In this document: piece by piece, positions 22,166 to 23,802 of the stretch
Position numbering within the stretch: position 1 is the stretch's first letter
Layout of the letters: each line of letters starts with the position of its first letter
From: an uncultured Gemmatimonadaceae bacterium
GTDB lineage: Bacteria; Gemmatimonadota; Gemmatimonadetes; Gemmatimonadales; Gemmatimonadaceae
Direction: 5' to 3'
Assembly (NCBI GenBank): GCA_963740355.1
Contig: CAVUDW010000003.1
Location: 2,464,001-2,528,000 of the forward strand
Length of the DNA stretch: 64,000 bases
Translations under genes and position numbers: made by a program
Notes under the pieces: model-generated
What the model saw: the letters and a program-made list of their open reading frames with translations, nothing else
Told to the model about the DNA's origin: nothing
The model's database searches: none

Positions 22166-22987
22166 TCACTGCTTCAGAAATGTGCGATCGATCCGGCTGT
22201 TCGGGTGCGCATCATGCCAGCGGCGCACCACCACGGCGCTCAGCATGCCGACGGCCGCACCGCTCACCACGTCGGACATCCAGTGTTGTCGATCACGCAC
22301 ACGACTCGCCCCGGTCAGCGCGGCCAGCGAGTACACCAACGGCGGACCCACCGTCTTCCAGCCACTCATCCCTTGCCGACGCCACTCGGCCGCCAGCGAC
22401 ACAGCCGCCGCGGCCGACAGCGCCGTGTGCCCGCTGGCGAAACTCCGCGTGCTGTCGCTGCGGAATCCGCCGAACAGATCCCAGTGCGTCGGGCTGTGAT
22501 CGGCAGTGGCGAATGGACGCGTGCGGCCTGCGATCATCTTGATGGCCGAGATGGTGACGCCGCTGAGGATCACCGACTCGGTGGTGCGCAGTCCGAGGAC
22601 CGCAGTGCCTGAGTCACCGCGCACACGTCCCAGCAGCCACGTCGCTGGCCCAATCGCGACCGAGACCTTGCTGCCCATCACATCGCCGACATCCGAGAAG
22701 TGGCGCAGGGTGGCATCGCCGCTCACGCCTGGACGTCGCGCCCAGGCATCGCCGCGCCGATCGGCGGTGGCGACGATCAGGGCCAGTGCCGCCATGCCCC
22801 CCAGCTTCACGCCATCGGTGCGGCGAAGTCCGAGTGTGGCGTAGTGATACGTCGCACCGACGGGCGCGACCGCGGCGCCAAGCGGCTGCGCCATCACGCG
22901 TGTCCCCGTCACACCGCTCAACATGGCGACCAGGCCGAATCCCGCGGTCAGTGGTCGAGCCGCCGTGCGAGCGCATCGCAGCATCAT
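22166..22987 (-). CDS. PAP2 family phosphatase
   Basis: KMIAGRTRP, SF.SGH and SRVRDRQHWMSDV motifs; ATG at 22987 overlaps the SET gene stop (ATGA). Confidence 0.88.
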   Translation of the reverse strand: MMLRCARTAARPLTAGFGLVAMLSGVTGTRVMAQPLGAAVAPVGATYHYATLGLRRTDGVKLGGMAALALIVATADRRGDAWARRPGVSGDATLRHFSDVGDVMGSKVSVAIGPATWLLGRVRGDSGTAVLGLRTTESVILSGVTISAIKMIAGRTRPFATADHSPTHWDLFGGFRSDSTRSFASGHTALSAAAAVSLAAEWRRQGMSGWKTVGPPLVYSLAALTGASRVRDRQHWMSDVVSGAAVGMLSAVVVRRWHDAHPNSRIDRTFLKQ

Positions 22988-23802
22988 TTCTGGCCCTTCT
23001 TCCCCTGTGTACCGGCCTTCTTCGCGGCCCCCTTTTTCGCCCCGCCTTTCTTCGCCGCACCCTTCTTTGCGGCACCCTTCTTCGCTGACCCCTTCTCGGC
23101 GTGCTTCTTCGCGGCCTTCTTGGCAGCTTTTTTGTCCGCCTTTTTGGCCGAGTGCTTCGCGGCGTGCGCGGCTGGCAAATCGGTGTGGGTGTCTGCGTCC
23201 TGCTTCCGCGACGCTTCCTTTTCCTGCTGCTTCTCTTCGTCGCGATTCGCCTTGCCGTCCAGCTTTTCCTGCTTCGACTTCTTGTCCTTCTTGTTCTTCT
23301 TGTCCTTCTTCTTCTTGTCCTTCTTCGTCTCCTTCAGCGGCGCCATGATCGTGCCGCGACACTTCGGCGACCCGCAGCGACAGACGTACAGCTTGAGATC
23401 CGCCTCAGTGTGCTCCGGCGTCCGCTCGTAGGCGTAGTCGTAGAGCAATTCGGTGCCTTCCTCGATCGTCTTCAGCGCACCGATGAACACGCGGCCGTCT
23501 TCCTCCTCGACCGCTTCGCAATTCGGGTCGCAGGAGTGATTGATGTACTTCGCCGGCCAGTCGATCGGCCCTGCATCCAGCACTCGCGAACCATCGCCGA
23601 TCGAGAACAGGAAGGTGTGATGCCGCCCCATCTCGTCGTCCGGATACCGGATGTCGGATTCCGCCTCGTCAATGCACTCACCGAGATATTCGATGATACG
23701 TGCACCCTTTTTGATACGACGAGTGGCGAAGGCACCCTTACCTTGGATCTTGGAGGTCCGGATGGCGAAGGCGAGCTTGCGAGTTCCTGCGAAGTGAGCC
23801 AC
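22984..23802 (-). CDS. SET-domain protein-lysine methyltransferase with post-SET zinc motif and histone-H1-like Lys/Ala tail
   Basis: IQGKGAFA, EYLGE, YINHSCDPN, ELLYDY and CRCGSPKCRG motifs, then about 118 aa with about 42 Lys including GAAKK repeats. Confidence 0.92.
   Translation of the reverse strand: MAHFAGTRKLAFAIRTSKIQGKGAFATRRIKKGARIIEYLGECIDEAESDIRYPDDEMGRHHTFLFSIGDGSRVLDAGPIDWPAKYINHSCDPNCEAVEEEDGRVFIGALKTIEEGTELLYDYAYERTPEHTEADLKLYVCRCGSPKCRGTIMAPLKETKKDKKKKDKKNKKDKKSKQEKLDGKANRDEEKQQEKEASRKQDADTHTDLPAAHAAKHSAKKADKKAAKKAAKKHAEKGSAKKGAAKKGAAKKGGAKKGAAKKAGTQGKKGQK

Follow-up and report, generated by a model that had tools for sequence, protein, structure and literature searches.

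A predicted SET-domain protein-lysine methyltransferase with a long, repeat-built basic tail in the family Gemmatimonadaceae

Bacterial SET-domain enzymes have been characterized mostly as effectors of pathogens, as described in PMC10117894, and the question remains which role they have in free-living bacteria. Here we describe a gene for a SET-domain protein with a lysine-rich C-terminal tail, which is located in a stretch of 64,000 nucleotides (positions 2,464,001 to 2,528,000 of contig CAVUDW010000003.1, assembly GCA_963740355.1; in the following called the window) from an uncultured soil or sediment bacterium of the family Gemmatimonadaceae. The gene is an extreme, repeat-built case of a basic extension that is typical of the family, and we assume with moderate confidence that the tail is a polycation that tethers the enzyme without sequence specificity, most likely to the DNA of the chromosome, which would place the enzyme on the nucleoid.

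Among bacteria, Chlamydia offers a described system for comparison. According to PMC3980110 and PMC10117894, cpnSET of Chlamydia pneumoniae binds and methylates the lysine-rich protein Hc1, and NUE of C. trachomatis automethylates. NUE is secreted and, in the accounts given in PMC3980110 and PMC6426960, did not methylate Hc1; findings on this protein are called discordant in PMC6426960, and Hc1, the only endogenous substrate reported for a bacterial SET enzyme, is disputed in these sources. Chlamydia and the genome studied here have in common a small SET enzyme linked to lysine-rich nucleoid proteins as well as the presence of SET and SWIB in one genome, reported for Chlamydia in PMC6426960, but in Chlamydia the enzyme and the lysine-rich protein are encoded by separate genes, whereas here they are fused and occur in an environmental family. 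A prokaryotic SET enzyme with an endogenous, DNA-associated substrate is also reported from archaea, where Go1-SET of Methanosarcina mazei is described to act on the chromatin protein MC1-alpha (Manzur and Zhou, 2005, as given in PMC10117894).

In eukaryotes, the KMT2 enzymes (MLL1-4 and Set1) show the same motifs as the protein described here, with the post-SET domain at the end of the fold, and they provide the best structural match; the matched catalytic-module chains of MLL1-4 (about 150-165 residues) align through the post-SET domain with few residues left over. KMT2 proteins end at the post-SET domain and their activity depends on WRAD partners, which the protein here is not known to have. 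The NSD enzymes, in turn, continue beyond this point, and according to PMC8593083, which cites Allali-Hassani 2014, NSD2 needs its residues 1209-1226 to methylate nucleosomes efficiently, and contacts of these residues with the phosphates of DNA are expected. The NSD1/NSD2/NSD3 fragment (PDB 7CRO, 7E8D) and the protein studied here both consist of a SET and a post-SET domain followed by a disordered extension rich in lysine and arginine. This extension is about 18 amino acids (aa) long in NSD, whereas it comprises 122 aa with repeats and a predicted helix here. Furthermore, NSD enzymes have an AWS/pre-SET domain and a nucleosome substrate, whereas the protein here has no AWS domain and a search of its genome yielded no histone fold. 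The basic extension directly after the post-SET domain may be regarded as a functional likeness to NSD, with no common descent implied.

Alanine- and lysine-type repeats appended to a protein are also known from mycobacterial Hlp/HupB and Ku (PAKKA type) and from AlgP of Pseudomonas (KPAA type). In mycobacterial Ku the lysine-rich tail was shown to interact with DNA, and a repeated origin of tails of this kind on unrelated DNA-binding proteins was proposed in the same work (PMC3553676), while the H1-like tail of AlgP is described as needed for the spacing of polyphosphate granules, with which AlgP associates (PMC9239181). In contrast to the protein studied here, Hlp/HupB, Ku and AlgP are DNA-binding proteins and not methyltransferases, and the tail here is poor in proline and opens with a K/D/E helix. 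The eukaryotic linker histone H1 combines a winged helix (PF00538) with a Lys/Ala/Pro-rich C-terminal domain, whereas Pfam reported no such winged helix here and the tail contains just two prolines. Our full-text searches of open-access literature brought up no work that deals with SET enzymes from Gemmatimonadota or with the fusion of a SET enzyme to an H1-like tail in a free-living bacterium.

SET domain, post-SET motif and tail

The open reading frame (ORF) of 272 aa is identical to the database gene call P0002 (272 aa, 100%), and its start codon agrees with that of orthologs, as the N-termini align at M/V-A-H/T-F/I-A-G (coordinates of all features are given in Table 1). The match to PF00856 spans profile positions 1-104 of 105 (E = 3.1e-20; 73 bits compared to a cut-off of 22.4) and covers the motifs named for SET enzymes in PMC3980110, which are an N-terminal GxG, NHxCxPN and ELxF/YDY with the catalytic tyrosine. 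In the protein studied here the second of these reads INHSCDPN (aa 87-94) and the third ELLYDY, and the cysteine motif CxCx4C (C141-R-C143-GSPK-C148) follows right after the SET domain, as in the post-SET-bearing subgroup of the KMT2/NSD/ASH1/SETD2 type. An alignment of 95 sequences revealed that G21, G23, N88, H89, C91, N94, E118, Y123, C141, C143, C148 and G150 are invariant. The otherwise invariant NHSC reads NHAC in an ortholog of the same genus (L004:1501-2118). As judged from these motifs nothing required for catalysis is absent, and the protein is apparently an intact SET and post-SET enzyme. Pfam reported no AWS or pre-SET domain, and the part of the protein ahead of the SET domain is just about 11-20 residues long. 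Public databases list this family of enzymes under the name "SET domain-containing protein-lysine N-methyltransferase".

The structure prediction is in line with this assignment. In the AlphaFold2 (AF2) model the SET part reaches a predicted local distance difference test (pLDDT) score above 90, and with Foldseek we obtained 376 matches in the PDB (E <= 0.001), headed by MLL1 and MLL3 and then by NSD1/2, ASH1L and SETD2. The top match (MLL1, 7w67_C) had an E-value of 2.3e-13, 34% identity and a template modelling (TM) score of 0.75 on the target. By sequence, the closest solved relatives in a phmmer search of the PDB are NSD2 (E = 3.6e-20) and MLL1, and the alignment to NSD2 runs through aa 190 of the query and thus into the basic post-SET stretch of NSD2 itself.

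The tail after G150 is composed of 42 K, 24 A, 10 G, 2 R, 16 D/E and 2 P (34% K, 20% A) and can be divided into four parts, namely a hinge, a stretch rich in K, D, E and Q, a short polar link that contains HAAKH, and AAKK/GAAKK repeats up to the C-terminal end. The hinge is the part that relatives share, their tails beginning with TIMAPPK, TILAPKK or TMLAPKR. In the AF2 prediction the K/D/E/Q-rich stretch forms a single long charged helix (pLDDT 81-89), and the residues behind it are predicted to be disordered (pLDDT 49-59). What the first-pass annotation of this DNA had seen in the protein sequence agrees with these results: it had described an intact SET plus post-SET domain within aa 1-150 and a tail of about 118 aa with about 42 lysines, for which we obtained 122 aa and 42 lysines, and it had given the order of the tail as a KKDKK block, an acidic/polar linker and AAKK/GAAKK repeats.

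At the DNA level the tail contains tandem repeats of 15 nucleotides (nt; 5.4 copies at 23016-23096), of 12 nt (3.1 copies at 23114-23150) and of 9/18 nt (at 23263-23335), and because of these repeats we conclude that the tail grew by local duplication. The GC content at third codon positions in the tail frame is 0.83 compared to 0.84 in neighbouring genes, and the lysine codons are AAG in 36 cases and AAA in 6. The tail DNA is therefore coding and its codon bias is typical of the genome.

Basic extensions in Gemmatimonadaceae and beyond

To place the tail in a phylogenetic context we used a sample of 301 species genomes of the phylum, 92 of which had a SET match. The matches were found in 67 of the 69 genomes of Gemmatimonadaceae, in 12 of 125 genomes of a sister family, all of them weak, and in few genomes elsewhere. 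These family tallies include one unpublished genome (G157) with a match, without which the count for Gemmatimonadaceae is 66 of 68. The census comprised matches at E <= 6.4e-19 except those of G157 and 106 loci were scanned; two of them with weak or truncated domains (L112, L113) were left out of the tree, which is based on 104 SET domains.

The tree splits into two sides of 42 and 62 rows. The smaller side includes a clade of 29 rows (support of 98 in the Shimodaira-Hasegawa-like approximate likelihood ratio test, SH-aLRT), all of which end about 7 residues past the post-SET motif, typically with TILAKKR. The larger side includes the gene under study, and in none of its rows does the protein end within 8 residues. 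The ends in this tailed clade are 10-170 aa long (median 36.5 aa), with a median net charge of +10.5 and at least 25% K+R in 56 of the 62 members. A copy of the tailed clade was present in 62 of the 67 Gemmatimonadaceae genomes examined, a TILAKKR copy in 29 and both in 27; the genome studied here also has a second, tail-less paralog, which falls into the 29-row clade.

The first-pass annotation had proposed to survey the conservation of the tail among orthologs and had named its absence in close orthologs, along with missing methylation and missing nucleic-acid binding, as the outcome that would speak against its idea. Because all 62 clade members have at least 10 aa past the post-SET motif, the tail is not absent there. 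The survey itself gave a divided answer: a basic extension is kept in close orthologs, but the AAKK block is not conserved, and the ortholog L004 of the same genus, with a SET domain 90% identical, has a tail of 56 aa that lacks this block. At least three xxKK units occur in 38 of 95 close relatives. From these comparisons it is the basic extension that appears to be conserved and not the AAKK block itself. The nearest relatives have 80-93% identity in the SET domain and a freely variable tail length, and the maintenance of the tail composition without its sequence is the pattern that would be expected of a charge-based binder. In a search for nearest relatives restricted to proteins of 149-476 aa we obtained 3471 relatives at E <= 0.001, and the best 120 of these 3471 all run past the post-SET motif, by 12-219 aa; one of them, P0097 (365 aa), runs into a second SET domain and, like P0125 (352 aa), is a tandem double-SET protein. 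A label for PF07382 was precomputed on 3 of the 120.

Within the tailed clade the extensions differ in composition as well as in position. Long lysine-rich tails of 70-170 aa are found in several separate branches (L035, L098, L031 and a branch of 13 rows), and the tails of many relatives are rich in arginine, for instance in L011 (1 K to 6 R) and L043 (2 K to 12 R). Two members have non-basic C-terminal ends of 10 aa, and one of these, L007, carries a basic N-terminal extension instead, a pattern also seen in the related locus L118.

Two further observations concern the tails of this clade. In the 13-row branch (L050, L056, L057, L065, L069, L071, L072, L078, L079, L081, L085, L089, L103), which largely represents the most-sampled genus of the family in the searched set, the tails open with a conserved non-basic element, RVPVYLRPTVREWLAGNDV, ahead of the lysine-rich repeats, and this element is probably an extra folded piece. 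Furthermore, a search by regular expression detected a histidine motif (HHAASRH, HHVAARH, HPHVAERHA, GHVEQHAAKHA) in otherwise unalignable tails in 16 of the 62 members of the tailed clade and in none of the 42 rows of the other side; it is found, among others, in the tails of L014, L024, L025, L031, L037, L040, L052, L056, L071, L081, L085 and L089. We considered this motif as a methyl acceptor and rejected it, as its central residue is mostly arginine.

For a view beyond the family, we compared a query consisting of the SET domain only, which is unbiased as to the tail, with 1.84 billion cluster representatives and obtained 9138 relatives at E <= 0.001. Among the best 150 of these 9138, 118 had a near-complete SET and post-SET domain. 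With a basic extension defined as at least 15 aa with K+R of at least 25% and a net charge of at least +5, 48 of the 118 representatives have one at the C-terminus and 15 at the N-terminus, both counts including 3 that have it at both termini, so that 60 carry at least one; in the remaining 58 neither terminus is basic by this definition, although 20 of them still end in a short basic stretch. Roughly every second one of these related bacterial proteins thus has a basic extension, and its fusion to a SET domain is nothing unusual. Close relatives with basic tails are found in Corallococcus praedator (84 aa), in a Myxococcaceae isolate (60 aa) and in a Xenophilus cluster, and such tails are also present in metagenome-assembled genomes of Burkholderiaceae, Steroidobacteraceae, Anaerolineales and Ignavibacteriales. 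The basic extension is thus common and fast-evolving and, because of the N-terminal pattern of L007 and L118 together with the survey of representatives, not tied to one terminus.

Lysine-rich proteins of the genome and possible roles of the tail

The lysine density of the tail is well beyond chance, as just 7 open frames of the 5.45-Mb genome (94.5% complete), the SET gene included, contain at least 12 K in 40 aa. Three of the other six are an HU/IHF-family protein, a SWIB/MDM2 protein and a deoxyribonuclease IV (Nfo) and therefore carry DNA-related domains, and a fourth, a stand-alone protein of AAKKGAKK-type repeats, resembles a bare H1-type tail. Nfo, an enzyme of DNA repair, was assigned by TIGR00587 (255.7 bits compared to a cut-off of 129.65), and its N-terminal tail weakly matches PF07382 (E = 1.2e-6) and NF038053 (E = 6.4e-6), both below cut-off. 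The fifth frame weakly resembles a polyphosphate-glucose phosphotransferase (E = 6.8e-10, below cut-off), and the sixth has no family match. The stand-alone AAKK protein is a candidate for an H1-tail-like nucleoid protein and a possible substrate of the SET enzyme. A recent exchange between its gene and the SET gene was considered and rejected, as the tail DNA is just 70-73% identical over 101-150 nt, which fits a convergence in composition. A histone fold (PF00808) was not found in this genome at its completeness of 94.5%, and the idea of a histone-fold substrate was rejected.

In the model that we favour, the gene product would be a cytoplasmic SET and post-SET protein-lysine methyltransferase with the tail as a tether, which would keep the small catalytic domain at the nucleoid, and the charged helix of about 43 aa between the basic hinge and the disordered repeat may serve as a spacer. 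An enzyme held in this way would meet lysine-rich DNA-bound proteins, such as the stand-alone AAKK protein or the lysine tails of the HU, SWIB and Nfo proteins, and possibly also its own tail, and the tether would have a role like that of the basic stretch behind the post-SET domain on which NSD1-3 depend for the methylation of nucleosomes. We infer DNA binding by the tail because of the basic extension in 56 of 62 clade members, its shift between termini, the similar tails on the HU, SWIB and Nfo proteins and the analogy to NSD. The first-pass annotation had also suggested a nucleoid-tethered enzyme, and among the readings considered, tethering to the nucleoid or to some other polyanion indeed has the best backing from the comparison.

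Several results weigh against this model. Profiles for Hc1, Hc2 and H1 from Pfam and NCBIfam gave no match to the whole protein at E <= 1 or to the tail alone at E <= 10. The SET protein matched neither the Hc2 models PF07382 and NF038052 nor the Burkholderia-type model NF038053, and Pfam reported no linker-histone globular domain (PF00538) in it, so that the earlier label "histone-H1-like" holds for the composition of the tail and does not appear to reflect homology. Since 58 of the 118 representatives have no long basic extension, the enzyme family can work without one. Within the genus the tail length differs about twofold (56 compared to 122 aa), and therefore much of the AAKK block could be dispensable. 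The gene neighbourhood shows no chromatin link and gives no indication of the function. Finally, lysine-rich tails also bind polyphosphate granules, as described for AlgP in PMC9239181, and could bind RNA.

Another role of the tail would be that of a substrate or an autoregulatory element, with the SET domain methylating tail lysines in cis or in trans and thereby tuning the affinity to DNA or the enzyme activity. With 42 tail lysines within reach of the active site, and with the automethylation of NUE and the methylation of the separate lysine-rich Hc1 by cpnSET as precedents (PMC3980110), this seems feasible, but we regard it as unlikely, as AF2 docks no part of the tail confidently, with the low pLDDT of the repeat region, the tails of many relatives are rich in arginine, which SET enzymes do not methylate, the sole conserved tail motif has R and not K at its center in most genera, and the basic extension is found at either terminus.

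That the tail is directed to a polyanion other than DNA, either RNA and ribosomes or polyphosphate granules, with the substrates located there, appears rather improbable to us. KKD/KKE runs like those in aa 160-180 occur in RNA-binding tails, and one of the lysine-tailed proteins of this genome is the weakly phosphotransferase-like frame mentioned above. The tail of AlgP is a precedent for the granules (PMC9239181), but half of the other lysine-dense proteins, three of six, have recognized DNA-related domains, and the closest characterized SET enzymes act on DNA-bound proteins in the descriptions of PMC3980110 and PMC8593083.

The tail could also be largely without function, if only a short basic stretch after the post-SET domain is needed and the AAKK and KKDKK blocks represent near-neutral replication slippage in a tolerant disordered region. 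Against this stand the recurrence of lysine-rich tails of 70-170 aa in separate branches of the clade and of long lysine-rich tails in relatives from Myxococcota and Burkholderiaceae, as well as the fully genome-typical codon bias of the tail, and we consider such an origin quite improbable, even though the tail DNA contains tandem repeats of 9, 12, 15 and 18 nt, the tail of the ortholog from the same genus has 56 aa without an AAKK block, tails of the clade have a median length of 36.5 aa compared to 122 aa here, and the other paralog keeps AKKR alone. For much of this particular tail, however, repeat growth beyond the needed stretch is plausible.

A secreted effector comparable to NUE, RomA/LegAS4 and BaSET, whose basic tail resembles a nuclear localization signal and which acts on the histones of eukaryotes as host or prey, would be in keeping with the effectors among characterized bacterial SET enzymes (PMC10117894) and with the basic stretch near the C-terminus of NUE that was read as a nuclear signal (PMC3980110), but it is very improbable because the gene is near-universal in an environmental family (67 of 69 genomes, with the tailed clade in 62 of the 67 examined) and the same type of tail is present on housekeeping DNA proteins of this genome, and the match to the LegAS4/AnkI (RomA) model NF043024 reaches just 33.4 bits compared to a cut-off of 550 and is confined to the SET part. 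No secretion signal was noticed, and none was searched for.

Gene context and significance

The SET gene and the downstream gene for a PAP2-family phosphatase overlap at the stop and start codon and are probably co-transcribed (Table 1). A gene for a 2H phosphoesterase comes after PAP2, and genes for Sua5/TsaC and enoyl-acyl carrier protein (ACP) reductase are located upstream and divergent. The order SET, PAP2 and 2H phosphoesterase is kept only in the same genus (L004, one of 11 loci). An ORF of 398 aa (22166..23362, minus strand), which overlaps the tail DNA and could mislead a gene caller, represents the downstream PAP2 gene with its reading extended too far in the upstream direction; its frame differs from that of the SET gene. 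Beside the tail-less paralog no lysine-rich mini-gene was found in this genome. In sequencing runs the sampled words were recovered at best at a fraction of 0.35 in a DNA run and at 0.05 in RNA runs; none reached half.

Two SWIB genes flank the window, one 44 kb before its start and one 7 kb after its end. Genomes with SWIB number 68 of 69 in the family and 76 of 125 in the sister family, tallies that include the unpublished genomes G157 and G057. A functional link based on the co-occurrence of SWIB and SET was rejected, as the association is not exclusive, with SWIB common in the sister family and strong SET matches rare there, and is confounded by relatedness.

Table 1. Features of the SET gene and related loci. 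Positions with two dots refer to the window; loci marked G000 (this genome) are given with the contig handle.
Feature	Position	Strand	Basis or remark
SET gene, 272 aa, with basic C-terminal tail	22984..23802	-	GTG start, TGA stop; ORF and database gene call
SET domain, aa 21-123 (GxG G21/G23, NHSC 88-91, ELLYDY 118-123)	23434..23742	-	Pfam PF00856
Post-SET zinc motif CRCGSPKCRG, aa 141-150	23353..23382	-	invariant Cys; aligned to NSD2 post-SET
Hinge TIMAPLKET, aa 151-159	23326..23352	-	conserved tail start, T-I/M-L/M-A-P-x-K in relatives
K/D/E/Q-rich segment, aa 160-202 (18 K, 2 R, 11 D/E, net +9)	23197..23325	-	composition; AF2
Lys/Ala/Gly part of the tail, predicted to be disordered, aa 203-272 (23 K, 21 A, 9 G, net +19), AAKK/GAAKK repeats	22987..23196	-	composition; AF2
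HAAKH, aa 213-217	23152..23166	-	weak copy of the clade His motif (HHAASRH, HPHVAERHA, GHVEQHAAKHA)
ATGA, TGA stop of SET overlapping ATG of downstream PAP2	22984..22987	-	sequence and ORF frames
PAP2-family phosphatase gene, downstream	22166..22987	-	Pfam PF01569, E 6.9e-22
Second, tail-less SET paralog, 155 aa, ends TMLARKR	G000 C3:1348763-1349212 = L001:1441-1908	+	in 29-row clade
Stand-alone protein of AAKKGAKK-type repeats, about 108 aa	G000 C2:765601-766080 = L015	+	no Pfam/NCBIfam match
HU/IHF-family protein with Lys/Ala C-terminal tail	G000 C2:591705-592262 = L017	+	like mycobacterial HupB
SWIB/MDM2 protein with N-terminal PAKKAAAKA-type repeat	G000 C3:2419335-2419859 = L019	-	
Deoxyribonuclease IV (Nfo) with N-terminal AKKVT-repeat tail of about 100 aa	G000 C2:1244976-1246187 = L018	-	
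Second SWIB/MDM2 gene	G000 C3:2535370-2535588	-	

Taken together, the gene is of use as a test case but does not come as a surprise. The gene family offers a concrete test for the role of SET enzymes in free-living bacteria, with tailed and tail-less paralogs in the same cells, an extension that is kept in composition, and lysine-rich candidate substrates. One could go further and imagine that Gemmatimonadaceae run a small eukaryote-like "chromatin" system, consisting of a tethered SET writer, a tail-less SET paralog, SWIB and Lys/Ala-tailed DNA proteins including the stand-alone H1-tail-like protein, in which the methylation of tail lysines, those of the SET protein itself included, would tune the compaction of DNA or the access to it. 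This is a speculative and, in our estimate, unlikely scenario; if true, the fused tail would be both anchor and regulated substrate, and there would be an endogenous methyl-lysine code on nucleoid proteins of free-living bacteria.

Should the tether fail, the tail would be just another low-complexity appendage of enzymes whose family has already been annotated. If it proves true, there would be a bacterial counterpart to the NSD enzymes in their need for a basic extension behind the post-SET domain, and the methylation of nucleoid proteins would be directly testable in culturable Gemmatimonas species.

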